Assembly: GCA_000165345.1 (NCBI GenBank)
Contig: CM000436.1
Span: forward strand, 768,001 to 832,000
Length of the DNA: 64,000 nt
Direction: 5' to 3'
Numbering within the stretch: the first letter of the stretch is position 1; each line of letters starts with the position of its first letter. The notes beneath the pieces were generated by a model. It made no database searches. It saw nothing but the letters and a program-made list of their open reading frames with translations, and was not told where the DNA came from. Below are positions 6,088 through 50,303 of this stretch, one piece after another. Made by a program: the position numbers and the translations under genes.

Positions 6088-6697
6088 TTTAACTTCCCTT
6101 TATTACTTGTGAAACAATTATTCAACGGCGACGAAGTTCTCAACAATACGAAGAGAAATTTAACTCTGAACTCAAGATCGCAATCTTTAATTTGGCACAG
6201 AGACAATCAACTAGACATTATAAAATGCGCCAACCATTTGAATCCAATATGTCTTTATCAATTAATTAGAAAATATTATAAATTCATTTATTTATCCATA
6301 TTTATATACCTATATATATAATTCATCAATATTTTTATATAATTATTTAAAATATAATTGTAAAAGTCTAGATTGTACTTTCAAGACAAAAAAAAAAAAA
6401 AAAGCGCTAATAAGCACTATATTCCAATTGCATAGAATTTTCACATTATAAAATTGTCTCTATTAGCTAACATTAACGTTTTACTATATGATCCGTGCAG
6501 TTGATGCACTGAAGGAATTAACTTAATGACTTGTTTAGATTTTTGGCCTGATTTCTCATATTAACTTTCGTTTTGATCGACTCCGCTATTTCTGTGTTTC
6601 CTCAATTAGCGCACACTGAACCCCCTAACTACCCATTTTATTGTTCTGTAAAACCACAACTTAAGGAAAACCCTCCTGAGATAGTTAATCAAGCACA

Positions 6698-11703: not shown

Positions 11704-11835
11704 TCCCCTAACTAAGTAAAAAAAAAATTTGGCTAAAATTATGCCACACTTAATAATATCAAGTAAATTCCATGTGTAGAATAATTAAAGTTTTTTTTAA
11801 TCGCAAAATATAAATTAATTAAATCCTTATTAATT

Positions 11836-17571: not shown

Positions 17572-17645
17572 GCACCCATAGCTCAGCTGGTTAGAGCATA
17601 CGGCTAATAACCGTAAGGTCCGCGGTTCGATCCCGCGTGGGTGCA
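17572..17645 (+). tRNA. tRNA-Ile (anticodon AAU)
   Basis: 74-nt cloverleaf. Acceptor GCACCCA/TGGGTGC with discriminator A; D-arm GCTC-AGCTGGTTA-GAGC; anticodon stem TACGG/CCGTA with loop CTAATAA (anticodon AAT); T-arm CGCGG-TTCGATC-CCGCG. The gene is followed by CTTTTTTT, a Pol III terminator. Confidence 0.9.
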
Positions 17646-17767
17646 CTTTTTTTGGCCCCGGCCCACATTTAGGTAATTTAAAGGAAGCAGATCAGTTTAG
17701 TGAGAGGGGAAACGGAAGTTTTTAAATTATTTAAAATTGTTGAGCTACTAATTTAAAATGTGGCTAA

Positions 17768-22538: not shown

Positions 22539-22850
22539 TTTAACACCGCTCTTTTGATTAACCAAATTTTTTTTACTTAATCCACATAAAATTTTAAAAA
22601 ATAGAATTAATTATTCCCGCGAAAGTTTTTTTGCAATATGTTGGTAAAATAACTTAATAAATAATGGAGTCATACTCAGTCTAGAATAAGCTTTGAATTG
22701 TATGAAACTCATTATTTGTTACTTATTAATATGTATATTTCAATTTAATGCAAATTTTCATTTTAAATTAGTAATTTTTTAAGCGCTAACAATTTTAGAT
22801 CCTATAATTAATTTCCCATGTAAAAAGGCATTTTTCATTCTGTCATATTC

Positions 22851-24076: not shown

Positions 24077-26704
24077 TTATCTAAATTTACTGTTAGGGTG
24101 CGCAATTCCTTTCGGATTACCCAAAATAATTTCTTGATTAAACTCGACTTTATCTCGATGAAATTTACTTTTAATAAGTATCCAGATAAATATTCCTATG
24201 AATATCGATCCAGAAATACTCAAAATCCCTATTATTCTATTGGAAATACTTTTTTTTTCTTTCCCAACAAAAATTACTTTATCTTCATCAACATTTGAAT
24301 TGATAATATCATAACTCAAATTATTTGGATTTAAATCTAGTGCTTGATATTTATGATTTTTGACATCGTTTAAATCGCCAGAGGAATTTTTGTTTAAATC
24401 GCTAAGGTCCAACGATATTGGGTCAGTATTTGTGTTAATTGTCTCTTGTCTCAAATCCGAGTGAATATTTCCAATAACAGGAGATAGATGTTGCTTAAAT
24501 AATGAAATTGGGTTTAAATATTCCATTGTAATGTATAACGACTCAAAGCTTCTCCATTTAAATTCAATAGACTTTGTAACTTCTTCTGAATTTATGCCCT
24601 TAAGTTCATTACTGTAGATATTGATCTTTATATTTTCATCTGATGGCCCCCAAACCCTCCATGACCTGATAGGTAGTTGATGAGGCCATCTTGTTCCTCC
24701 AAAGTATTGAAATCCTAACCTTGAGTCGAACTTATTAGAATGGCCATTGCGAATATAATCAACAGCATATGCCTTTATTCCATGAATGCTCCCTAACGTA
24801 GTTCCAATTACCCAAGTATCTTTGGATTTATTAATTACTATCCCTCGATACAACACGTATCCAGGGTGATTTTTCTTCTTATTTCTTTTTTGTCTAAAGA
24901 AAGGGAATCCTAGATATTCTCCCAAATGAAAATAATCTCCATTGATATCATCAGTGCCTCCATTTATTACCATTTTAACATGTTTTGGTTTGATACCTAT
25001 AATTCTGACAAAAACTTTTTCTTCAACAAAATTACTATTTGGAATATTATGCACATATTTCTTTTTAAATGGGGGTTTCAAAAATGCCCAACCATCAGGC
25101 TCTAATTCCATCCCTCTTTCAGCAGGCCAATCAACTTCGGATTTAATTCTTGAATTGCTTGGCCTTCTCCAAATAGCCAAAATTTGGCTGGGGCTAGTAT
25201 TTCCCAATTGCCTTGAAATAATCCACGATATGGCATTTGACTCATTAACAAATGACCAAAGGTACAGACTATTTCCAGGGTATTCTACTATTGAACTTTG
25301 TAAGCTAACGTCCTCACTTCTTAAGGGCCCCCTTTGTACAAAGTATGGCCTACTCTTAAAAAATCCCTCCCAACTATATAAGGCATTAGAGAAGTATCCA
25401 TTCGCACCATTAATTATAATATCTAAAGTTCCCCGTGAAGGTGGTATACATGAAGAAATTTTGTATTTTGTTAATCCGCTAAATTTACTTAAATGAGGAT
25501 TGGGACAACCCGGAAATACTTGTAAATCGTCGGGTGATTCAACTAAAGGAATATGTTCAAGAATAATTGATTCCTTAGGTATAAAAGTAAATGGTCTTGC
25601 TTCTTCAACAATCAAATCCTTATCAAAAACCAATACACGCTTAGACTCCATTTCTTTAGGTATTGTAACAGGTAATGGATTCCTCAAGGGGGTGCTAGGA
25701 TCTAGTTCGACGTATGGAACTATATCATGAGCACTAAACTTTCTTGGCTGAACATACCATCCTCTAGTGTATGCAGGGGAGTATGGCCTTCCAATTATTT
25801 CTGCATAAATTTGTCCAACTGATATTTTTGGGTTATTAATTGGCCAAGTATCTCCAATACACCATCTTTCTATGGGGAAATTTAAAAAAAATATGTACAA
25901 GCTTGGCTCAGGATAAATTCTTCTATAAACTGGCCTAATAATTGGCTCAACATACCAAGGAAACCTTTCATCACTTTGAGACAATTGCATTGATTCTTCT
26001 CTCTTATATATTCCATGTAATGCAGCATTATATGAGGAACTACGGACTTCAATAAATAGTGGAGTATATCTTGCATATGGAATAGTACGTAAATATATTT
26101 CTTTCGAAAAAATTTCATCTTTTACATTTCCTGGAAATGAAAAATATCCAAAATTATTATATTTATTATTTTTAATCGAACTTTCTCCTTCGGTAATTTC
26201 ACTTCCTGCGCTAATATTATTATACTTTGTATTTAGTCTTTCAATCTCATTAATAACAAAATGTTCAATTCCGATCATTCTTTCGTTAGGTCTCACCATA
26301 AATGCAAACTCGTCAATTTGAAGACTTTCTATTTTTGGTTTTTTGATTAGTTTAAATGGCTTAATGGTAGATAATTCTACCTTTTGGGGAGATTTATAAT
26401 GCGACTTCCCAGAAACAGAAATATAATCATGTTGATTGATTGTTTGATTATTGTGGGTCTCTTTAATAAAAATATTCCTCGAATTATCTTTAATATCTAT
26501 TTGAGAGTTAGCTTCATTTAACTCTGAAATATTAATATCATCTATAATTGAAGTTTCATCTTCGCTTTCATCTGTAGAAAACGAACTTTTTTCATGCTTA
26601 TTTTTTAGTAAGTTAACCTCGATTAAATAACCAGTATTTTGGTCAAAAAATAAATAACTATATAGGTATATTAATGAAAATAGTCCCAGAAAATTAATAC
26701 ACAT
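24077..26704 (-). CDS. Large type I membrane protein (875 aa); lineage-specific W/Y/P-rich ectodomain
   Basis: N-terminal signal peptide (MCINFLGLFSLIYLYSYLF), an ectodomain of about 790 aa with many N-x-S/T sites, a single C-terminal TM (IIGILSISGSIFIGIFIWILI) and a short basic cytoplasmic tail. No recognisable catalytic family. Confidence 0.55.
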   Translation of the reverse strand: MCINFLGLFSLIYLYSYLFFDQNTGYLIEVNLLKNKHEKSSFSTDESEDETSIIDDINISELNEANSQIDIKDNSRNIFIKETHNNQTINQHDYISVSGKSHYKSPQKVELSTIKPFKLIKKPKIESLQIDEFAFMVRPNERMIGIEHFVINEIERLNTKYNNISAGSEITEGESSIKNNKYNNFGYFSFPGNVKDEIFSKEIYLRTIPYARYTPLFIEVRSSSYNAALHGIYKREESMQLSQSDERFPWYVEPIIRPVYRRIYPEPSLYIFFLNFPIERWCIGDTWPINNPKISVGQIYAEIIGRPYSPAYTRGWYVQPRKFSAHDIVPYVELDPSTPLRNPLPVTIPKEMESKRVLVFDKDLIVEEARPFTFIPKESIILEHIPLVESPDDLQVFPGCPNPHLSKFSGLTKYKISSCIPPSRGTLDIIINGANGYFSNALYSWEGFFKSRPYFVQRGPLRSEDVSLQSSIVEYPGNSLYLWSFVNESNAISWIISRQLGNTSPSQILAIWRRPSNSRIKSEVDWPAERGMELEPDGWAFLKPPFKKKYVHNIPNSNFVEEKVFVRIIGIKPKHVKMVINGGTDDINGDYFHLGEYLGFPFFRQKRNKKKNHPGYVLYRGIVINKSKDTWVIGTTLGSIHGIKAYAVDYIRNGHSNKFDSRLGFQYFGGTRWPHQLPIRSWRVWGPSDENIKINIYSNELKGINSEEVTKSIEFKWRSFESLYITMEYLNPISLFKQHLSPVIGNIHSDLRQETINTNTDPISLDLSDLNKNSSGDLNDVKNHKYQALDLNPNNLSYDIINSNVDEDKVIFVGKEKKSISNRIIGILSISGSIFIGIFIWILIKSKFHRDKVEFNQEIILGNPKGIAHPNSKFR

Positions 26705-28650
26705 ATCATTATTGAGAATAAAAGTCTTTATTTACAAATTTTGTGTGTGCGTACACACAATCCATTAGTAAAAATTTATATATCGTTGAACGAATATTTA
26801 GTCATCTTTGAAAATATTGATGGGTTAAAGAATCCAAAATCATAATTTTTGATAACTAATCTAATATGTGATTTTTTTTTTCCTCCAACAAATGGCTCAT
26901 TGCGCTATGATTATTATATTAAAATTGACAAAAGGTCGTTATAAATTTCTGTAAAGATAAATTATTTCATAAACTAAAAATAAATGTTCTACTAAATATA
27001 GCTTGAAAAAATATATATTAGCTTAAAAATAAATTAATAGTACGAAAATTATATTCAACACTTGAAAATTCAACTGCTTTTATTTAAGAGGGAAAAAGAA
27101 GTAATATTGAGTACTTTTGTATTTTAAGTTTATTTTATTCGTAAATCCAATTTATTAGGTAATTACAATCGAATTTTTAAAATTTAACAACTTTCAATTT
27201 ATAGAAATTGATTTAACTTTAATCATTCGAGTAGCCAATTTGATCCAAAAATAGTTCAATATGAAAAAGTTTAATTATAGTAATTACTGTGAAATGAATT
27301 AATTTGATATTTATTAACATGAAAGTTTTATTTTCAGCAAATAAAAATCACTACAGTAATTCATAGTATAACTATTCTTAAAAATCATGAACAAACCGAA
27401 AAAATTGAAACTAGAAAATTTATTAAATTATTATTTAAGATCTTTTCCGCAATCTGACAATTTGATGATTCTGATCTTATTCTGACTTAGTTCAACAAGA
27501 GGAATACAATACTTGAATTGAAAAGATTTAAATAAGTTCTAAATTATAAAGTCTCTAATAGTTATTTTGTGCAATAATTTATTAAAAAAGTTGCAACTAT
27601 GTTGATATTTTTGTAAATTTAGTTGAACTTTTTTTTTGAATAATAATACAACATTTAAATATTTTATTTGTACGTAACTTAAGCACTAAAAATTTACAAT
27701 TAAGACTTAAATGTTAATCACCAGCACTTAACATTATCATAATTCGAAGGAGCATATTTTGCCTTAAAATTCTATATTGTTTAAGAAATAAATCTATTAT
27801 ATAAAATATCGCAGTTATCATCTCTGAAATAGATTCTTATCATACTATTATGAAAAGTAAATTAGACATCATTTGAGCTATTAATATTCTCGTTAAATAC
27901 AATTAAAGTAGAAACAATTATCAATAGCTATAAATAGTTATTGGACATTGTAGAGAAATAAAGAACTTAAGGGTTTTTTTAGTATGGCACTTCATTTATT
28001 TAAATTGTAATTTACATAATTGTGCACTGGTTAACATACTATAAATCAAAAATGTTCAAGTGCGTTAATAATAAAGAGCTTAATCAAGGGAGTCAGAATC
28101 GGCAACATTTCCTCGTTATTGATAAATATTCTATTTAAATTTCGGGGAAAGGAATTATTAAACTTAATTTTCTTTATGAATTACTACGATTTGCACATAT
28201 TAGCTTGGATAATCACAATAAATGATGTAATTTGTTTTGAAAAACTAAGCAAAATTTTCGTTACAAATAGTTGAACCTTTTAAATATGTGTTTTGCATAC
28301 TAACAATACTACATTTTTTTAGAAAATGATTCAAGAAATTCAATTTGATATCAATACATGCAATGATTAACAATTGGTAATTGATAAATCAATCTAAGAA
28401 ACTTGAACCGCGTTAAATATTTTAAGACATTTTAGATTTCTGTCTACTTTTTTGACAAAAGCCCGGATAAAATTCCTCGTCTAAATTAAAGTAGACAAAA
28501 AAACGCCCCCACTATTTTGTAATATAATAATTAGCTCGTGCTGGAGAGTATCCGGTACTATTAATACCGCGAATTAGAAATAAAAAATAGATATAAATTT
28601 TATTTTAAATATAGATCGGACAAATTATGTAAAGATCTTGATGACTTTGG

Positions 28651-29865
28651 ATGTCAAACTTGAATAACTTAGCATTGCAATTGGTCCAGATTCTTAACCA
28701 GCATAGTAGCGATGGTGGACCGCAAAGTGCTGTATCATCCAACCAGACGGATACAGCAAATAAGTTTTTGCTTGAACACTATAATAATTTCTTTCTGCCA
28801 TATATTTCGAGAACGGGAAATGAGCATATTTTGAGCAATCCCTGTAACCAGAATTCCACTCCAATTGATCAGCTATTGACATCATATCCGAACAATACTG
28901 GTACACCAATTGGCTCCATTTTAAATTACGATCAATGCGGAAACTTAAAGTCGCCTTCACAATCTACTGATCAAGAACAATTGAATTCAAAACAAAATCT
29001 AGATCCATTAACCTATAATTCAGCGGTGAAATCTACACAACTATTACTTACCTTACAAAACCAAACTCCATTGATTGGGTTACAAAACACTCCGATCGAA
29101 GTTTCAAGACCGCAAGTTTCAAGTTCTTCTACTCAACAAGTCGCTCCACTTAATATACTTAACAATAATTTAAATAATTGGGCAGAATCTGCTCTTTCAA
29201 CATTGCTAGATAAGCCGGATATGCTTATGAATTTAATGCGACTTGGTGCTGCCAGTATTATGGCATCTTATTATGGACAGACACAGAATCCAACTGGCGT
29301 AAATATCTTACAACAAAGTTCTCCGTTTATTTATAATATGTCTCTTTCACCAAAACAAGCTGAAACACCCTGCATTAATAATGTTAGTCCTATTGAGATG
29401 AACAACTCTTCTATGGCATTTACTCCAGTAAAATCACCTTCAACAGAAAAAATTGAACACCAAACCCCGGTATTTACGCCGAATGCATCTCAACAGTTCT
29501 CCGACGAACTAGTTTTCTATAACTTTCTTGAACAGAGTAGAAAACTTTCGTGCGACATCAAAAATCAAAATGAGAAGAAAAATTTATCTACAAATAAAAG
29601 TAATGGACAACCTATTAGGAAAAGCTGTGCAGGGAGGCCACGGTTAGATCGTTCAGATTGGTGTTGTAGTTTATGTAGATGCATTGAAACTGCACAATGG
29701 AGATATCTCAGAAATACCCTCGAGAATAATCAAAACAATATTTGCCATCGTGGTAAAATCCTGGTGTGTAACGCTTGCTATTTAAGAGTGTCTAAGGAAA
29801 ACAAAATTAGACAAAAAATAAATACCTATAAACTAGAAGGAAACATAAAAATAGACGATACTTAG
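28651..29865 (+). CDS. GATA-like zinc-finger protein (atypical extended finger loop)
   Basis: Long Q/N/S/P-rich low-complexity N-terminal region, then a C-terminal finger ..CSLCRCIETAQWRY..(insert)..VCNACYLRVSKENKIRQK. The GATA hallmarks are present: C-x2-C, Thr at +5, Trp at +8, CNAC, and a basic tail. The inter-Cys spacing is about 31 instead of 17-18. Confidence 0.5.
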   Translation: MSNLNNLALQLVQILNQHSSDGGPQSAVSSNQTDTANKFLLEHYNNFFLPYISRTGNEHILSNPCNQNSTPIDQLLTSYPNNTGTPIGSILNYDQCGNLKSPSQSTDQEQLNSKQNLDPLTYNSAVKSTQLLLTLQNQTPLIGLQNTPIEVSRPQVSSSSTQQVAPLNILNNNLNNWAESALSTLLDKPDMLMNLMRLGAASIMASYYGQTQNPTGVNILQQSSPFIYNMSLSPKQAETPCINNVSPIEMNNSSMAFTPVKSPSTEKIEHQTPVFTPNASQQFSDELVFYNFLEQSRKLSCDIKNQNEKKNLSTNKSNGQPIRKSCAGRPRLDRSDWCCSLCRCIETAQWRYLRNTLENNQNNICHRGKILVCNACYLRVSKENKIRQKINTYKLEGNIKIDDT

Positions 29866-30363
29866 GAATTGAAAACTTTTTTTTTATTTTTATTTTTCTT
29901 TATCTCCAAGATGTGTGCGTTCTATCCCTTTATACACACTAATTTATAGATGTAGGATTATGTCTCAAAGATTGCATTTTTATTCACAATTATTTACAAT
30001 GGGCCAAATATTCGTATGCGAATGCTGCGAAGAGCAATCTAGATGTATAATTGACCAGAATGAAGTGGAAATAGTGCGTCCAACACATTGCGTTACAGAA
30101 TATCAACGTAAAATGGGTTATATTCCAGTGATAACATGTAGCCCCATGTCATCAAGAAATCAAACTCCACGCTCAATAATTTCATCATATTTCTATTCAC
30201 CTAGAGGGAATGAGCCATGAAAATAGTTATTTTTTACTGTTTTTTTTCCCCCCTGATAAATAGGTCTTGTCTTTTTCAGTTCCCCCCCTTATTTTATATG
30301 GTATAAAACTCAATTACTTTATTTCATCACAATAGAATTGATTTATGGAAAATCCTAATTATT

Positions 30364-31132: not shown

Positions 31133-31750
31133 GCACTTAAAATTCATATGCAGATCGAAGAATTTGACTATTTGAGAAATTTTTCTCATTCAAAACATAA
31201 CAATAGTATAAATATTTTAATTAGAAAAACAAGATCGATGTTCAAAGCCTGCGCTTTCCTTGACTTTTAGCTTCAATAACCAGGGAATTATGCAATTTAT
31301 TTTTATTAATTACAACACGAAGCGGAGATTGGGAAATATATCTTTTGTGTTATGTTATAATTTACTTATTTATATTGAAGTGATACGAATATCTGTAAAA
31401 CGGTTCTAATCTATTTAACGTTCAACGCATGATAGAACTAGTGGTTTGTAAAGTTGTTGAAAATAATATAATTTATTGACAGCATTAGTGCATTGAGTTC
31501 GAGATAGAAAGTTAATTATTCTTAAGTTCGAAAAATACTTTTATATAATTACTTACAGAAATGTATCCCACGCAACTTTTTTGGAATTTTCGGGAGTATT
31601 TTTCGCGTTATTAGAAACATATATCCATCGTCACACTAAATGGTAAATGGGGGGGCAGGGAAAAAACGGTTTATTTGATGCATATGTTATCTTAACCTGG
31701 AATAAATTAAATGAAAGAATATTATTAGTGTTCGCATTTCATATTAATAA

Positions 31751-33586: not shown

Positions 33587-33619
33587 CTTGACGCTGATAG
33601 ACTGAATACGTTGCGATGC

Positions 33620-33670
33620 ACCCCCCCCCACCTAAAGAGGTGGAATGCGGCGCCACATGTAAATATGTGG
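33620..33670. promoter_or_regulatory. Composite promoter block upstream of the CDKL kinase: C9 tract (G-box on the other strand), two short inverted repeats and GGCGCCA (E2F-like)
   Basis: C x9 at 33621..33629. Inverted repeat CCACCT-aaag-AGGTGG at 33628..33643. GCGGCGCCA at 33647..33655. Inverted repeat CCACAT-gtaaat-ATGTGG at 33653..33670. The block lies about 150-200 bp upstream of ATG 33818. Confidence 0.35.
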
Positions 33671-33817
33671 CTAATAAGCATGTATTTTAGGATATAATTT
33701 CTGTTAATGCTTCAATAATTCAATCTATTTGATTCATTTTATGAGAGTCTTGTCACAACATAAGTTTGTTAATGTAACTAATTACGTTTATCTCAGGGCT
33801 TTTCTTGTAAAGTAAAT

Positions 33818-35353: not shown

Positions 35354-35639
35354 TAACGATCCAAAAATAATAATGTAGACAGCCAAAAGGAATTAATTAG
35401 ATTTATATTATAAGCTGATATATATAGAATTTCTAATAATAAATACCACCAACTTGTTATAGTAGCAATCAGTTACTATTAATATTCATTCTCTATATTT
35501 TAGTTATTTTTTTAATTAATTGCGTAATTTGCCCATTCCCGCTGTGAATATTTGTAGTTTTAAATGCTTCTTAATGAGTTTTGAATAAATTACTTATTAA
35601 TGTTAATAGAGGCTGGTAATATTGGCCCTAGCTCTTACT

Positions 35640-38600
35640 ATGTCTAAAATTAGGTTCCAGAAAAGTCAATTATCAATTGAACCAGAACCTCCAAAAGAGA
35701 TAGATGAGGATCATCGCGATTTTTTAATTAAGGAGTCTAAATGGATGTATGGATGTTTCATAGATGAACACAAATGGAAAATAAAATCATTTAAAGCAGT
35801 TGCTCAATGTGCAATTAGATACCTTCAGACCAAAAACCAACGATTAAAAAAACGAAAAGAAGAAGAAGATAAACGTCTAAGGATTGTTTCAAAAAATATT
35901 TCAGTAAACATCAATAAATTCTGGAATAATATTTCTAAGATTGTGAGACATCGAAAGCTAAGCGAATTAAATAAGCTTTTGAGAATCAAGCAATTCGAAA
36001 AACTTGATAAACTTGTATCTGAAACTGAAAAATTTTATTTTGGGACTAATGAGGATTCAGGAAAAAAAACTCAACCAAATGATAAATACTGCAAAATAGA
36101 TTTAAAAAGTAAATCTGATAGTGAAGATGATCTCGAAACAGACAATTGGGACTATATTGAAAAGGTTGACAATAAATTAGATCTAGAAATGGAAAGTTCT
36201 GACTTTGATAGTGATGAAGTTAATGCTGAGTTAGATGAACTGAATAACGATGCAAGCTTAAATTTAGAAGAGTTGTACTTAAAGTATTATGGTAATCCTT
36301 ACGACAAAAAAAATAATTTAAAAAGAGATAAATCAGACCATGCTTATATTGGAGATGCAATAAAACGTAAAAAAAACGACTACTGTGAAGAGTATGTTGA
36401 AACCACTATTAGCAAACATATTGAAGAAGAGTTGGGTACGGAAAAAGAAATGAATGACACAGATAAAAAAAATGATTTTAGTCTGAAAGATGAATTTGAA
36501 ACATTGAGCAATGTTGCAAACACTCCAATTGATAAAGCTATTGCAAACCTAGAAGAAAAAAACAATCCACAAAATTGTTTGGAAACTAATAATGCTCTCG
36601 CAAAAGTTTCAATCGATCAAATTAAAATCCCTTTTCTTCTAAAAAATAATATGAGGGAATACCAAGTTGCTGGACTCGAATGGATGGTCAAATTGTACAA
36701 AAAAGGATTAAATGGAATCCTTGCTGATGAAATGGGTCTTGGAAAGACAATTCAAACTATTTCGCTCCTTGCATATCTTGCTTGCTATATGAAAAATTGG
36801 GGGCCACATTTAATTGTTGTACCTACCAGCGTAATGTTGAATTGGGAAATGGAATTTAAACGATGGCTTCCATGCTTCAAAGTTATCACGTACTTTGGAA
36901 CTCCAAAAGAGAGACAGAAGAAAAGGATTGGATGGAACGATCCTAATGCATTTAATGTATGTATTGCGTCATATACTTTAATTTTACAAGATGCACATAT
37001 ATTTAAAAGGAAACAATGGCAATATTTAATTTTAGATGAGGCTCAAAATATCAAGAACTTTAAGTCTCAAAAATGGCAAGTAATGTTATCATTTAATACT
37101 GAAAGAAGACTTTTGCTTACAGGCACACCATTACAAAATAACTTAATGGAACTTTGGTCATTGCTGCATTTTTTGATGCCTCATATATTCACATCGCATC
37201 ATGACTTTAAAACTTGGTTTTCCGACCCTTTAACGACTGCCATTGAAAATCAGCAGGTTGAAAATGAAAGAAATTTATTAAGTAGACTTCACTCTGTGTT
37301 GAGACCCTTTTTATTAAGAAGATTAAAAAAGGATGTGGAAAAGGAAATGCCATCAAAAATTGAACATGTAATTAAGTGTCCCTTAAGCAAGCGTCAAAAA
37401 GAGCTATATGATGAATTCCTTGAAAGTAAAACAACTCAAAATACTATTGCTGGCGGAGATTATATTGGCTTGATGAATGTATTAATGCAGTTAAGAAAGG
37501 TTTGTAATCATCCTGATCTTTTTGAACCTAGGACAATTAAGACGCCAATTGTTGAAAAAAAACTAATGATAAATTATTCATTTAGCTCGCTAATATTCTT
37601 CCCAAATATATGTATTACAATGTCATCTAATGTGCCTGGACTGGGAAAAAATATCTCGACAAATAATTACCTATATATCGGCAAAAAAACTAATAAGTCG
37701 AAATACACGACTCTGTTTGACAAATTAACTAATCACAGGTTTGTGAATATACCAAATATTTTTATTTTATACAACGAAATCCATATGAGTAAGTTTCAAG
37801 CACAATCACAATGCGAATTAACTTACAAAAAATGGACTGGAATGCAATCCTGTAATTACAACATAGAAAATTCATTGTTCAGCAAACGTACTATAGGAAC
37901 TGAGAATCTGTTGGAAATAAACCGTTTTATAAGAATTGGTCTTGATAGATTAGCTTCTGTTGAATTCAACTCCCCCTTAATAGGAATGGATTCAAAAAGT
38001 ACCGAGTACACAAAAGATGTTAATAAATACATACTTGACCACATTTCTAATAACAAGGTGAAAAATAAATCTAATAGTGTTATTAACTCAACAGAGAGTG
38101 TTTCTTTATTTTATAAAGAGGATAATCGAAAGATTGCATCCGAATGGAGACCTTCGTGTGACTACCCACATTTATTGGATGAATCGGTTCAAATATTTCA
38201 TTCAAATAAAATTAAAAATACCAATTGTGATAGTAAACCATGCATAAAATTTGGTTCACCATTCAATGTTGTTTATGGAAAAGATTGTAGAAATTTTATT
38301 TTTGATCAAATACAAAATAAGTTAAAAATGGTTGGTGAAAAAACATTTTCATTCTCAACTTTTCCTAATTTATTTTCAAATCGAAAAAAATCTTATAAAA
38401 ATACAGCTATATCATATAAGTCAATTGATTACAATACTCTCAATGAAATGAATGCTAAATTAATTAATTTAGAAATGTTTCCAAGCAAATTATTATTTGT
38501 GAAACCTAATTTTCGCAAGCAGCTCCCAATGTTATCACAATTCAACATGATTCTTGAGAGAAAAGTTATTTCAACAAATTTTTCCATTCCTATAGAGGGT

Positions 38601-39755
38601 AAATATTCATTCGTTAAAAATGAGCTTTTTTGCAACTCATATATTTCTTTACAAGTTGATAATTTAATCAATTCTTCAAATGCATATTTACATAATATTT
38701 CCTTCTTTAAAAAGTGTATTGTTCCTCCTAGAAGAATAATTGAGGATGATTGCGGAAAATTCCAAATACTTTCTCGATTATTACATAAACTCTTTAATGA
38801 AGGGCATAGATGTATCATTTTCACGCAGATGAGCAAAATGCTGGATGTTTTAGAATCCTTCATAAACTACCGAGGATACAACTATCTTCGATTAGATGGA
38901 AGCACTAAAGTTGATGACAGACAAAAACTTGTGAATAGATTTAACAGAGATCAACGAATTTATCTATTTATTTCATCAACTAGGTCTGGTGGGGTTGGAT
39001 TGAATTTAACTGGCGCAGATACTGTTATTTTTTATGATTCTGACTGGAACCCAGCAATGGATAGACAAGCAATGGATCGCTGCCATAGAATTGGCCAAAC
39101 AAGAGATGTAAACATATATAGGCTAGTTTCTGAATGGACAATTGAGGAAAGCATTTTTAAAAAGCAGCTCCAAAAGAGATTATTAGATGATGTTGTTGTT
39201 GATCAGGGCCGCTTCACTTCAGAGTTTTTTTCAAAAAACGATATTCAAAAAATGATTGGGTCAAGAAATCAGAATATGCTTAATTCTGATAATAACAGTA
39301 TTTATGTCACAAGGGTACTCCATGAAAGCTCAACTGCCGATTCGAATGCTTCAGCAAATTTTAATGACAACCAAAAGAAAGAATTTGAAGATGTTTTAGC
39401 TGCAGTAGAAGATTTAGATGATATTAATGCGCTGAAGAAATCTTCTAGAGAAATTGCCACAGAGAATGATGATTTTATTAATGAATTTGAAGAAAAAATA
39501 AAGCATAAGGTTGAATCAAACAGAACCCTAGAAAAAGACAATGTTGGTAATTTTAATCAGTATGACATAACTACAAATATCACGCTGAATAACTTACTCA
39601 AATATTGTATTGAATTTTTTGAAAGTGTGTCAGTTCCTCTAGATATTCAAAATGAAGTTGATTTATTAGAATTTCAAATTAATAATATTAATAGTGACAG
39701 CTCAATTGAAAATTCATTATCCGAATATTCGCAGGGTGAATTGCCATACGATTAG
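35640..39755 (+). CDS. SWR1: SWR1/SRCAP-type SNF2 chromatin-remodelling ATPase (HSA domain + split helicase)
   Basis: The track ORF starts at TTG 35622; the first ATG is 35640 (MSKIRFQ..). HSA-like N-terminus. ATPase lobe 1 ..LREYQVAGLEWMVKLYKKGLNGILADEMGLGKTIQTISLLAYLACYMKNWGPHLIVVPTSVMLNWEMEFKRW.. is near-identical in pattern to SWR1/SRCAP. A long insertion precedes lobe 2 (..LDGSTKVDDRQKLVNRFN..SGGVGLNLTGADTVIFYDSDWNPAMDRQAMDRCHRIGQTRDVNIYRL..). Confidence 0.85.
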   Translation: MSKIRFQKSQLSIEPEPPKEIDEDHRDFLIKESKWMYGCFIDEHKWKIKSFKAVAQCAIRYLQTKNQRLKKRKEEEDKRLRIVSKNISVNINKFWNNISKIVRHRKLSELNKLLRIKQFEKLDKLVSETEKFYFGTNEDSGKKTQPNDKYCKIDLKSKSDSEDDLETDNWDYIEKVDNKLDLEMESSDFDSDEVNAELDELNNDASLNLEELYLKYYGNPYDKKNNLKRDKSDHAYIGDAIKRKKNDYCEEYVETTISKHIEEELGTEKEMNDTDKKNDFSLKDEFETLSNVANTPIDKAIANLEEKNNPQNCLETNNALAKVSIDQIKIPFLLKNNMREYQVAGLEWMVKLYKKGLNGILADEMGLGKTIQTISLLAYLACYMKNWGPHLIVVPTSVMLNWEMEFKRWLPCFKVITYFGTPKERQKKRIGWNDPNAFNVCIASYTLILQDAHIFKRKQWQYLILDEAQNIKNFKSQKWQVMLSFNTERRLLLTGTPLQNNLMELWSLLHFLMPHIFTSHHDFKTWFSDPLTTAIENQQVENERNLLSRLHSVLRPFLLRRLKKDVEKEMPSKIEHVIKCPLSKRQKELYDEFLESKTTQNTIAGGDYIGLMNVLMQLRKVCNHPDLFEPRTIKTPIVEKKLMINYSFSSLIFFPNICITMSSNVPGLGKNISTNNYLYIGKKTNKSKYTTLFDKLTNHRFVNIPNIFILYNEIHMSKFQAQSQCELTYKKWTGMQSCNYNIENSLFSKRTIGTENLLEINRFIRIGLDRLASVEFNSPLIGMDSKSTEYTKDVNKYILDHISNNKVKNKSNSVINSTESVSLFYKEDNRKIASEWRPSCDYPHLLDESVQIFHSNKIKNTNCDSKPCIKFGSPFNVVYGKDCRNFIFDQIQNKLKMVGEKTFSFSTFPNLFSNRKKSYKNTAISYKSIDYNTLNEMNAKLINLEMFPSKLLFVKPNFRKQLPMLSQFNMILERKVISTNFSIPIEGKYSFVKNELFCNSYISLQVDNLINSSNAYLHNISFFKKCIVPPRRIIEDDCGKFQILSRLLHKLFNEGHRCIIFTQMSKMLDVLESFINYRGYNYLRLDGSTKVDDRQKLVNRFNRDQRIYLFISSTRSGGVGLNLTGADTVIFYDSDWNPAMDRQAMDRCHRIGQTRDVNIYRLVSEWTIEESIFKKQLQKRLLDDVVVDQGRFTSEFFSKNDIQKMIGSRNQNMLNSDNNSIYVTRVLHESSTADSNASANFNDNQKKEFEDVLAAVEDLDDINALKKSSREIATENDDFINEFEEKIKHKVESNRTLEKDNVGNFNQYDITTNITLNNLLKYCIEFFESVSVPLDIQNEVDLLEFQINNINSDSSIENSLSEYSQGELPYD

Positions 39756-47156: not shown

Positions 47157-48137
47157 TTAGTTTTTTTCTGTTTCAGTAGAATTCTTTGGGTTATTTAAAA
47201 TGAGGGATGTTGACATAGAGTTGAACTCGGACACAAAACTTTCATTTTGAGAATCTAATTTCTCAAACTTTAATATTGAATATTGAAAACTTTTGATTGA
47301 ATTGAAATTACTTTTGAATTCTTTCATTCTAACATTTGGATCTGTTGTCTCATCTTCATGTGGTTTGTTTCCTGTTATGTACTCTGGGTTTATTCTTATA
47401 ATTACGGGGAAACTAATTGCTTCTTGATTTGCCTCCTTATTTTCCGTTTCTTGACTTCTAATCGGTATAAATGGATTAATATATGGATGCTCATTAGAAT
47501 AATTTTTAGTTATCCTTCTAGCAAACAGACGGCTATTTTTTTTAGAAGACTGAGATTCATCGTAATTTGAAGATTCTTCCTCTGTTATGGCATTATCATT
47601 TAGCGCAAGTTTTGAATCCAAAGAAGTTGTTCCATTATAAAGGTTTGGTTCTTGATTAAATGAGAAAAAAAATGGACCATTAAGTTCAGTAGCCGGATAT
47701 CTCCTTGAGTGATAAATATCATTGTTAATCTTTTTTGTCTCATTTGCAGTTCCTGAATGAATTTCTTTCTCAGTTTTATTTAAAGTATCATTTTCTTCTG
47801 CTATTAATTTTAAGCCAAAGTGGGTTTGAAAACTTGCAGATTTTATTAAATTTTGTTTATTTGCTGTTTCTATTTCTGATTCTAAATAATTTGGACTATA
47901 GCCACTATTCAAAGTTTTATTTTTGTCTTCGTGTATTTGTATCGACACTTTCATTGAAACTTGGAATAGTCTCTGGTAGTATTTCTGAATCCATTATGGC
48001 TAAAGTTTACAGATTCCTTCTTCACTGACGGGGTTTAATTCTTTAATCAGGTTAATATGAGATCCTAAGGTATATCCATATATAACAGATAAAATAGATA
48101 TTATGGAGAATAATTTAAAAAATGACAATAGTTTCAT
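47157..48137 (-). CDS. Secreted S/N/T-rich glycoprotein-like protein; proposed 2-exon model with signal-peptide exon
   Basis: The main ORF 47954..47157 (ATG verified) encodes a 265-aa hydrophilic protein with at least 8 N-x-S/T sites and no signal peptide. Immediately upstream an ATG at 48137 opens MKLLSFFKLFSIISILSVIYGYT.., a classic signal peptide. The only phase-consistent join is exon1 48137..48030, intron 48029..47985 (45 nt, GTCAGT..CAG), exon2 47984..47157, giving 311 aa. The donor has a non-consensus +3 C, so exon 1 is tentative. The 47157..47954 part is more secure. Confidence 0.45.
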
Positions 48138-48746
48138 ATTTATTATAGTAGCCAGTTATTGCCATTTTCTTTTGTTTCGTGTGATTATATTCGAGTGCAA
48201 TAAATGTGTGAATTATAACGGAAAAATGATTTATTACAAACTAAATAAAGAACAGGATGAGTTATTCTAGTCTATTCTTTTATTTCTCCTTTGAAATTCC
48301 GAAATGAATGTAATATATTAATAAAAAAAAAAAAAAAATAAATAAATAATAAACAAATTATATTTATAAATATATTTAATGATAATTAATAGATATAATT
48401 AAGTGTTTAGCATAGTCAAATAAGCAAATCTAACTAATTTTACTAATATTTGTAATATTTTTTTTTCTTATTAAATTGTATTTTTTGTTTTAATTAATAA
48501 AATTAAGATCTTCATTAAAGTGTGTAAGCGCGTGTTAGCACTACACACAATGATATTAAATAATTAAAGGGTGAGAGAATTGACTAAATCGATAGTTAAG
48601 TTGAACAATATTGATTTAATTCTTGGAAATAGGAGCACTTCTCATATTTCCCAAAATAGCTGAAGGAATAGCTGTATTCAGGGAAGAAAATTCTTTTAAA
48701 TAGATAGAATTATCCGTTTTATTAATTTAAACTCCAAGTATGAATA

Positions 48747-50303
48747 ATGACAGAACAGAATAATGATTTAGATTTCAAAGATGACAATATCAAAGATTTG
48801 CAAAGAAAGGAGGATTTAGAGGCAAATATAATTTCTCAAAACTACAGTATAAAAATTAGAGATACATCAAGAAATATGAGTTATACGAATAATAGAAGAG
48901 ATGAAATTTTCATGCAGTTACAAACAGAATTGTTTGATATTCTTTTAGAGATTTATAACATAATTCCTACATGGGGCTCATTTAAAGAAAACTTCTATTT
49001 TCATTGGAAGAGAATTATTGGTGCCTGCAATTTCAAAGATCTTCATGCATATAGGCTAATTTTTAGATGCTTGGGAAATTTACGCCCTTCTTCAATGCCT
49101 ATATTTATTCTAAGGCCAATAATTAAACAGCTAGATGAGTATAGAAAAATTTCAGAGCCTGAATATTCTCCATCTAATTTTGAATTTAACCCAAATATAC
49201 ACAGGAGCTTAGCTACAACTTCTAATGGCCCAATTGCCATGCTACAAAATTCACATCCCGTTAAAACATGTGCCCAAATTCAAAGTAAAAAAGAAATATT
49301 GCTTGAAGATAAAATAGGACGAGATTTTTTCTCCGATAAATGTAATTCTAGCTTTTTTCATGAAATTATTAAAGAAAATGCAAAATATTCAGGATTAGTA
49401 TTATCAGGATTAAATGAAGCAAATGTCATTCCATTTTCGTTACTAGAAAATGATATATTCAACTCTGTGCCGTCACAAAATAATAGTAATCTAATTGATA
49501 ATATCTACAATTCAATAAATAAGAATTTCTATTTTTCGATAACTAGACAACAAAACGGTAGTTTTACAAATGATAATGAAAAATTAGCCGAAGACAAGAA
49601 GATAAAAAATGAGCTAATTGATAGAAAGGAGCACATTCTTTCGGACGATTATAATTCTAATGAATTTATTAATAATTCATTGGTTATTTCGAATAATTGG
49701 AATTCAAACTCTGCAGTCTCTTCGCCTTATGGTTCGGTTTGCACTGCACCAACACTTTCACCTACAGAATATAAAATTGAAGGGCCTATAATGGCAGCTT
49801 TTCAACATATTCAAGCAGTAGCAGTTGCAACAGCAGTTGCAAATAATTCTAAAAACAAACTAAACTCCGCAGGTAATTTATCAAACGAACAAAATACAAT
49901 ACAACCAAAGAAAAGACCGAGGAGGAATGGTGAGATTCAAGGGGTATATTTCGACAAAATACGCAAACTTTGGCGTGCAAACTGGAAAGAAAATGGACGT
50001 GTAAAAACAAAAGGGTTTTCAGTTTTTCAATTTGGAGATGAGGGCGCAAGACAAAAAGCTATTGAATATCGTAAGAAAATGGAAAAAGAATTCTATGTCG
50101 TGCCTAATACAAAGCTTTCTAGAAGTTCAAGCAATAGTGGAACTATCTATATTAATACAGAAAAGACGTTTCAAAACAGTATCTCACCTAAAAAAAAAGA
50201 TATTGAACTTAGTTCAAATTTAAATAACACTTTGAGCAGTTCAAAGCTAAACTCTGAAAACACAAAATTATCAGAAAACACCAACTCTAATTTTAACAAT
50301 TAA
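48747..50303 (+). CDS. ApiAP2 transcription factor (single AP2 domain near the C-terminus)
   Basis: AP2/ERF-like domain ..GVYFDKIRKLWRANWKENGRVKTKGFSVFQFGDEGARQKAIEYRKKMEKEF.. at about aa 395-450 (nt about 49930..50100). The rest is low-complexity N/S-rich, as is typical for apicomplexan AP2 factors. ATG verified at 48747. Confidence 0.8.
   Translation: MTEQNNDLDFKDDNIKDLQRKEDLEANIISQNYSIKIRDTSRNMSYTNNRRDEIFMQLQTELFDILLEIYNIIPTWGSFKENFYFHWKRIIGACNFKDLHAYRLIFRCLGNLRPSSMPIFILRPIIKQLDEYRKISEPEYSPSNFEFNPNIHRSLATTSNGPIAMLQNSHPVKTCAQIQSKKEILLEDKIGRDFFSDKCNSSFFHEIIKENAKYSGLVLSGLNEANVIPFSLLENDIFNSVPSQNNSNLIDNIYNSINKNFYFSITRQQNGSFTNDNEKLAEDKKIKNELIDRKEHILSDDYNSNEFINNSLVISNNWNSNSAVSSPYGSVCTAPTLSPTEYKIEGPIMAAFQHIQAVAVATAVANNSKNKLNSAGNLSNEQNTIQPKKRPRRNGEIQGVYFDKIRKLWRANWKENGRVKTKGFSVFQFGDEGARQKAIEYRKKMEKEFYVVPNTKLSRSSSNSGTIYINTEKTFQNSISPKKKDIELSSNLNNTLSSSKLNSENTKLSENTNSNFNN

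Follow-up and report, generated by a model that had tools for sequence, protein, structure and literature searches.

What are the paired GTGTG and CACAC sequences that recur between genes on chromosome 8 of Cryptosporidium parvum, and which proteins are likely to read them? The question is raised by a 64-kb stretch of this chromosome (the window), 15.9 kb of it noncoding, in which an initial reading made from the letters alone (the sequence-only reading) had seen one motif at four intergenic sites and proposed it as a candidate cis-regulatory element that resembles AP2 targets. We find that three of the four sites are inverted pairs of half-sites, here called dyads, which are strongly over-represented in the window and keep their place in front of the same genes in other Cryptosporidium species. 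With a probability that we put at roughly 60%, the dyad is a DNA-level site for CACACA-class ApiAP2 factors at merogony genes, with a feedback copy at the ApiAP2 gene cgd8_3130. The sequence of the dyad, its enrichment, and its genus-wide position come from this analysis, and the literature supplies the evidence that the motif class is bound in vitro, as well as the expression profiles.

Gene names in the window were set by placing on it the primers of a published quantitative reverse-transcription polymerase chain reaction (qRT-PCR) time course (Mauzy 2012). The 875-aa, 404-aa, 86-aa, RFC, and AP2 proteins are exact matches to C. parvum proteins; by primer mapping, the 404-aa gene is cgd8_3050, and the RFC gene is cgd8_2940. 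When the window was re-read, all four sequences were found where the sequence-only reading had placed them: TGTGTGTGCGTACACACAA at 26742-26760, 38 nt from the ATG of cgd8_3040 (26704); TGTGTGCG, followed by a 13-nt spacer and TACACAC, at 29912-29939; GTGTGTAAGCGCGTGTTAGCACTACACACAA at 48520-48550; and GCGCACAC at 6609-6616 on the plus strand, upstream of RFC (copy 4). The first three have in common an inverted pair, GTGTG ... CACAC, with 4-19 nt between the two boxes (4-21 bp over the short and long forms described below):

Copy 1, 26743..26758, no strand: short dyad GTGTG(TG)-CGTA-CACAC, 39-54 nt upstream of the cgd8_3040 ATG.
Copy 2, 29913..29939, no strand: long dyad GTGTGCG/TACACAC with a spacer of about 13-15 nt.
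Copy 3, 48520..48548, no strand: perfect 7-nt inverted repeat GTGTGTA-N15-TACACAC, a candidate autoregulatory site.

These dyads are all noncoding and lie 40-230 nt upstream of ATGs, a range that widens to 40 to ~270 nt when copies and species are taken together. Copy 2 is found 48 nt past the stop codon of cgd8_3050 and 60-86 nt upstream of the MGQ start of 8g3055 (29999), and copy 3 is 199-227 nt upstream of the cgd8_3130 ATG.

Is this more than coincidence? Taken as a single word, GTGTGCG occurs three times in the window, always in noncoding DNA, against 0.83 expected, a count reached in 3 of 100 shuffles. The earlier estimate that it should appear fewer than once by chance is right, with 0.2-0.4 occurrences expected in the noncoding DNA. 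However, GTGTGCG ranks only 19-32 among 4909 7-mers and by itself fails multiple testing; since some 20-30 other 7-mers are equally surprising, its count alone is no proof. TACACAC as a single word is likewise not significant in the window after multiple testing. The single-word test gave way to a test of the dyad. The 64 kb hold exactly three occurrences of GTGTG-N(0-20)-CACAC, all of them noncoding; shuffled noncoding DNA gives a mean of 0.028, and none of 2000 shuffles reaches three. The window contains no everted GTGTG/CACAC pairs and no dyads in coding DNA. When all 1024 5-mer dyads were scanned, GTGTG/CACAC came first, with three observed against 0.02 expected (Poisson p = 1.3e-6).

Orthologous loci give a second line of evidence. 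Syntenic regions anchored on a Swr1-like gene (35622-39755) and on RFC were compared in C. meleagridis, chipmunk genotype I, C. ubiquitum, C. canis, C. felis, C. ryanae, C. andersoni, and one more species; the cross-species dyad count covers 12 loci from nine species and about 300 kb, ~240 kb of it in orthologous loci besides the window. In up to eight Cryptosporidium species, copies 1-3 stay at one and the same promoter-proximal place amid diverging flanks, and in all compared loci no dyad was found beyond these three orthologous places. All five species with sequence over copy 1 have GTGTG-N4-CACAC there, at -37 to -54 from the cgd8_3040 ATG (GTGTGCGCACACAC in C. meleagridis, GTGTGTGTACACAC in chipmunk genotype I and C. 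ubiquitum, GTGTGCATACACAC in C. canis); what varies is the four central bases (CGTA, CGCA, TGTA, or CATA), the flanks, and the number of GT units. The first arm of copy 2, GTGTGC[G/A], is retained in seven of eight species. Three species have its second arm in place (C. parvum, C. meleagridis, and C. ubiquitum); the arm has shifted to a gap of 4-5 nt in C. felis (GTGTGCATTGCACAC) and C. andersoni (GTGTGAAGTCACAC), and in chipmunk genotype I and C. canis it has decayed. Both arms of copy 3, GTGTGTA and TACACAC, are retained in seven species (the AP2 upstream region of C. andersoni falls outside the compared locus), and in C. ryanae they are intact around a spacer that has been replaced.

Two further places in the window carry unpaired or direct boxes of the same core:

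Two direct TCACAC boxes, 48179..48210, minus strand: read as GTGTGA on the plus strand at 48179 and 48206.
Single GCCACAC box, 11745..11749, plus strand: ~90 nt upstream of cgd8_2970, a weak member of the element.

Measured from the cgd8_3120 start (48137), the direct boxes are 42 and 69 nt upstream, and at least one of them is retained in 8/8 species, C. andersoni included. C. ubiquitum, C. canis, and C. felis all retain the GCCACAC box. Another CACAC, at 31632, was considered as a further conserved site and dropped, being retained only in C. meleagridis.

Exact sharing of 7-mers across species proved to be swamped by AT-rich words; it was limited to words with at least three G/C bases, with mismatched-region nulls, and then superseded by alignment-based conservation of 5-mers in 15 aligned intergenic regions of C. 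parvum, C. ubiquitum, C. canis, and C. felis. By this measure, CACAC/GTGTG is the top intergenic 5-mer for full conservation (5 of 11 occurrences, against 5% among 5-mers in general and 9.7% among those matched in GC), adjoining the E2F core GGCGC in the ranking.

The copy upstream of RFC behaves differently from the others. The sequence-only reading had counted it in the family; C. ubiquitum and C. canis have CACAT for its pentamer in an otherwise conserved block, AGCGCACAYTGAACCCC, and the block is absent in C. felis. Copy 4 was rejected as a member because the pentamer is not conserved and RFC peaks at 6 h, not 12 h. Thus, of the proposed recurrence at four sites, copies 1-3 stand, being both enriched and conserved, and copy 4 falls away. 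As a separate observation, the EF2/RFC divergent promoter holds two E2F-like sequences, AAATGCGCCAA and AAAGCGCTAA (6223-6233 and 6401-6410), conserved in C. ubiquitum and C. canis and present in variant form in C. felis. The loss of copy 4, the varying number of GT units in copy 1, and the modest rank of GTGTGCG are what one would cite for regarding the recurrence as chance, or as a functionless residue of (GT)n/(AC)n low-complexity sequence. We regard this as scarcely credible, given that the dyad ranks first of 1024, that its position is retained in species whose intergenic flanks align poorly, and that CACAC is the best-conserved of the intergenic 5-mers.

Does the inverted repeat act as DNA or as RNA? 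An inverted repeat can pair with itself, and the dyad might be a hairpin in the 5' untranslated region (UTR), or a DNA cruciform, that controls translation or mRNA stability. Some copies do fold better than shuffled sequence: copy 3 at -12.6 kcal/mol on the plus strand (z = -2.2) and -14.9 kcal/mol on the minus strand (z = -3.3), and copy 1 at -8.8 kcal/mol (z = -2.4). Copy 3, 200 nt from the ATG, also sits inside a longer conserved block. However, C. parvum copy 2 (z = -1.2) and C. ryanae copy 3 (z = -0.5) fold no better than shuffles, and the seven arm pairs show no compensatory change in seven species, five of the seven being invariant and the inner pair being broken in C. canis and C. felis. 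Constraint on structure alone would not require identical arms at three unrelated loci, where the same arm sequence recurs, nor would it account for copy 2, which in two species retains one arm while the other has decayed, or for the conserved direct CACAC boxes upstream of cgd8_3120, which do not pair. In Rfam searches, a transfer RNA (tRNA) is the sole gathering-score match in the window (tRNA-Ile, anticodon AAT, at 17572-17646, between cgd8_3000 and an SMC gene), and E-value scans around copy 3 and around a conserved block at 28300-28700 (described below) returned nothing credible. A hairpin is thus a distinctly improbable explanation. Arms that outlast the replacement of their spacer, and one arm that outlasts the decay of the other, show the behavior of independent protein half-sites, for which 62 orthologous arms give the consensus T-[A/G]-CACAC-[A].

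Which protein family would recognize such half-sites? The sequence-only reading had likened them to SPE2, and TGTGCG in C. parvum copies 1, 2, and 4 does fit one SPE2 half-site. The resemblance of the dyad to the SPE2/PfSIP2 system ends there. SPE2 is a direct tandem of (T/G)GTGC(A/G) with a 4-bp gap, found in subtelomeric arrays, whereas the halves seen here are inverted, never form a direct tandem with a 4-bp gap, and occupy chromosome-internal promoters. Nor is the GTGC core conserved: it becomes GTGT in orthologues and in copy 3, and among orthologous half-sites, GTGTGTG or GTGTGTA is met as often as GTGTGCR. Membership in the SPE2/SIP2 class was rejected on both grounds. E2F was also considered and set aside: the arms lack GCGC, and only the copy 3 spacer AAGCGCGT comes near the site [A/T][C/G]GCGC[G/C][A/T], matching it at 7/8 positions.

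A closer relative is known from the same organism. AP2_2 (5'-GCACAC-3') is a published over-represented upstream motif of C. parvum (Oberstaller 2013, PMC3734150), and CACACA is bound on protein-binding microarrays by the AP2 domains of cgd8_3130, cgd4_600, cgd5_2570, and cgd6_2600 (Oberstaller 2014, PMC4117751). The predicted targets of these CACACA-binding domains peak at 12 and 36 h (PMC4117751), like cgd8_3040, cgd8_3120, and cgd8_3130. The dyad shares with this class its core, present in all six arms of copies 1-3, an upstream intergenic location (copy 2 also lying downstream of a stop codon, as noted above), and the mark of selection (5/11 occurrences fully conserved, vs. a background of 5-10%). 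It differs in that the published motif is a single 6-mer without over-representation at the level of expression clusters. Promoter-proximal, conserved in the genus, and matching the CACACA/AP2_2 class, the dyad holds up as the candidate cis-regulatory element and AP2 target that had been proposed.

The ApiAP2 gene that follows copy 3 is cgd8_3130, itself a CACACA binder, a point absent from the sequence-only reading. Copy 3 thus stands some 200 nt ahead of the gene for a binder of that very motif class, and it is found upstream of cgd8_3130 in seven species, as would be expected of an autoregulatory ApiAP2 loop of the kind proposed for AP2-G, TA11145, and PF3D7_1456000. The gene for this factor and the putative target genes in the window are as follows:

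cgd8_3040, 24077..26704, minus strand: 875-aa membrane protein, identified by exact C. parvum match and primers; putative target of copy 1.
8g3055, 29960..30220, plus strand: 86-aa gene with a conserved start at 29999; putative target of copy 2.
cgd8_3120, 47157..48137, minus strand: signal-peptide protein, identified by primers; putative target of the direct boxes.
cgd8_3130, 48747..50303, plus strand: 518 aa with a single AP2 domain; candidate trans-acting factor.

The AP2 domain of cgd8_3130 matches Pfam AP2 at E = 1e-14, and the Mauzy 2012 primers that identify the gene land at 49744 and 49920. Two of the gene models merit comment. In the present assembly, cgd8_3120 is a 265-aa open reading frame (47157-47954), and in other C. 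parvum assemblies it has 325 aa from 48137, with a signal peptide; a full-length tblastn alignment at 91.6% identity points to a disrupted reading frame, or an error in the sequence, in this assembly's N-terminal portion of the gene. The annotated start of 8g3055 at 29960 is not conserved, and most other compared species begin with MGQ (29999), C. felis with MSQ; to judge by its residues, the C. parvum N-terminus MGQIFVCECC may be an N-myristoylation and palmitoylation signal.

Expression suggests a role in merogony for three of these genes. In the qRT-PCR data of Mauzy 2012, cgd8_3040, cgd8_3120, and cgd8_3130 show almost no expression at 2 and 6 h and then a spike at 12 h; ~85% of cgd8_3120 expression falls at 12 h, and cgd8_3130 rises a second time at 36 h. 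This low-then-spike profile is seen in ~8 of ~50 neighboring genes examined. All three testable genes with paired boxes thus spike at 12 h, which suggests an association, with n = 3, two motif-less neighbors that do likewise, and cgd8_2970, which does not. Taken with the known binding of the motif class, this silence at 2-6 h followed by the 12-h spike leads us to regard the dyad as a site for ApiAP2 factors at merogony genes, with a likely autoregulatory copy. Along the same lines, cgd8_3130 and cgd5_2570 are the two AP2 genes expressed only in in vivo females (PMC6877471), and a fraction of that sorted female population is past fertilization and producing sporozoites (PMC6877471), so that female-only expression fits a role in zoite formation.

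A mechanism can be sketched from these observations. The element would consist of inverted half-sites with the consensus (T)RCACAC(A), i.e., GTGTGYR ... YRCACAC on one strand, in a short form with a gap of 4-5 bp (copy 1, as well as copy 2 in C. felis and C. andersoni) and a long form with 17-21 bp between the pentamers (copies 2 and 3). During merogony, at 12 h and then once more at 36 h after infection, both half-sites would be occupied by a CACACA-class factor. The likeliest factor would be cgd8_3130, possibly acting with, or competing against, cgd4_600, cgd5_2570, and cgd6_2600; as cgd8_3130 has a single AP2 domain, two of its molecules or a dimer would be needed to contact both halves. 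Binding would turn on cgd8_3040, 8g3055, cgd8_3120, and cgd8_3130 itself, and through the copy ahead of cgd8_3130 the factor would feed back positively on its own gene, in keeping with an expression profile that goes from off to a spike. The identity of the factor in vivo, its dimeric binding, and activation rather than repression are what we infer.

Several facts count against this interpretation. CACACA is not over-represented upstream of 200 co-expression clusters (Oberstaller 2014, PMC4117751), and no AP2 motifs appear in the peaks of a sporozoite assay for transposase-accessible chromatin with sequencing (ATAC-seq), though the genes considered here are silent at that stage. The expression association concerns three genes, with a threshold picked after the data had been seen; cgd8_3020 and cgd8_3030 spike at 12 h with E2F-like sites and no CACAC box, and cgd8_2970 peaks at 6 h despite its conserved box. 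A spacing that varies from 4 to 21 bp is unusual for a rigid dimer. Copy 2 could alternatively lie within the 3' UTR of cgd8_3050, and the dyads may themselves be transcribed.

A related alternative accepts the dyad as a real conserved promoter element and changes its reader: a zinc-finger or Myb protein, or a core-promoter or initiator function that positions the start of transcription. Copy 1 and the cgd8_3120 boxes lie at similar distances from the ATG (about -40 to -70), as a core-promoter element might, and the conserved AAGCGCGTG within copy 3, along with a nearby AAGATCT, suggests a composite site. We nevertheless consider this alternative unlikely. A fixed core-promoter element fits poorly with distances to the ATG that run, over the copies and species, from 40 to ~270 nt, and four C. 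parvum AP2 domains bind precisely the CACACA core in vitro, as do AP2 domains of Plasmodium and Theileria. The AAGATCT(T) sequence itself is found at 48505-48511, about 8-14 nt upstream of copy 3, where it is conserved in 6/7 species compared, and again at 28632-28639, 19 nt upstream of the cgd8_3050 ATG. AGATC is second among the conserved intergenic 5-mers (6/14); AGATCT, however, is common in coding DNA too.

With an ApiAP2 factor as the preferred reader, the nearest parallels for an autoregulatory copy come from two other apicomplexan genera. In Theileria annulata, the TA11145 (TaAP2.me1) gene carries upstream a double (A)CACAC(A) that is bound by the AP2 domain of its own product; expression of the gene rises as merozoites form, and an autoregulation model supported by electrophoretic mobility shift assays has been proposed (PMC4537280). 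The likeness lies in the CACAC core, its doubling (with a 5-nt gap), and its place upstream of a gene for an AP2 protein that binds CACAC. TA11145 differs in belonging to another genus and to the orthology group of PF3D7_0802100, not PF3D7_1456000, and in having seven motifs scattered in the Theileria spacer vs. the one dyad seen here. The cgd8_3130 orthologue is Plasmodium falciparum PF3D7_1456000 (PF14_0533, AP2-HC), whose protein-binding-microarray motif, CACACACAC, is highly similar to that of cgd8_3130. PfAP2-HC is reported to occupy HP1 heterochromatin in vivo, independently of its own AP2 domain, and we know of no dyad arrangement described for it. As quoted in PMC4537280, Campbell 2010 predicted that PF3D7_1456000 auto-regulates.

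These parallels permit a bolder version of the same idea, which we offer tentatively and think somewhat doubtful: the dyad would be a distinct composite element bound by a cgd8_3130 dimer, and the copy at the cgd8_3130 promoter would be a positive feedback switch that times zoite formation. The program under this switch would cover merozoites at 12 and 36 h and sporozoites after fertilization. With the same motif bound in Plasmodium by the orthologue, for which autoregulation is likewise predicted, the loop would be ancestral, predating the split between Cryptosporidium and Plasmodium.

The window holds other conserved noncoding sequence. The spacer between the divergent genes cgd8_3040 and cgd8_3050 (26705-28650) is 1.95 kb long and AT-rich (23.5% GC), and its length is retained at 1935-2134 nt in five species of this compact genome. 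Besides copy 1, the spacer holds a noncoding block of ~230 nt at 28412-28650, directly upstream of the ATG of cgd8_3050, a gene with high, constitutive expression. Mean identity of the block is 83% across seven species, the gastric C. andersoni among them. Within it are a mini upstream open reading frame, ATG-TAA (28627-28632), and a stem, CGGTA...TACCG, and the block shows no Rfam match and no covariation. Strongly conserved blocks also occur in five species in the cgd8_3060/cgd8_3070 spacer (33597-33696), among them CCCCCACCTAAAGAGGTGG at 33625, with the inverted repeat CCACCT/AGGTGG, and the E2F-like ATGCGGCGCCACATG (GGCGCC) at 33645. A G-box, AATGGGGGGG (31646-31655), upstream of cgd8_3060 is retained with small variation in 7/8 species, C. 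andersoni being the exception. An E2F-like TTCCCGCT (35536-35543) is conserved upstream of the Swr1-like gene, and TTCCCGCGAAA (22614-22624) lies between the 12-h genes cgd8_3020 and cgd8_3030.

How much of this is new? Publications already cover the motif class and the AP2 domains that bind it in vitro, and autoregulation of AP2 genes through CACAC sites has been proposed in print as well, so that the advance is incremental. The searched literature contained no inverted-pair architecture in Cryptosporidium, no conservation of the motif across the genus, no specific target promoters, and no site at cgd8_3130. The regulatory targets of nearly all Cryptosporidium ApiAP2 factors are unknown (review PMC12246861), and earlier work failed to tie CACACA to sets of co-expressed genes (PMC4117751). 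What the present analysis supplies are concrete, genus-conserved sites at four neighboring genes, a defined dyad architecture, and a candidate autoregulatory site at cgd8_3130.

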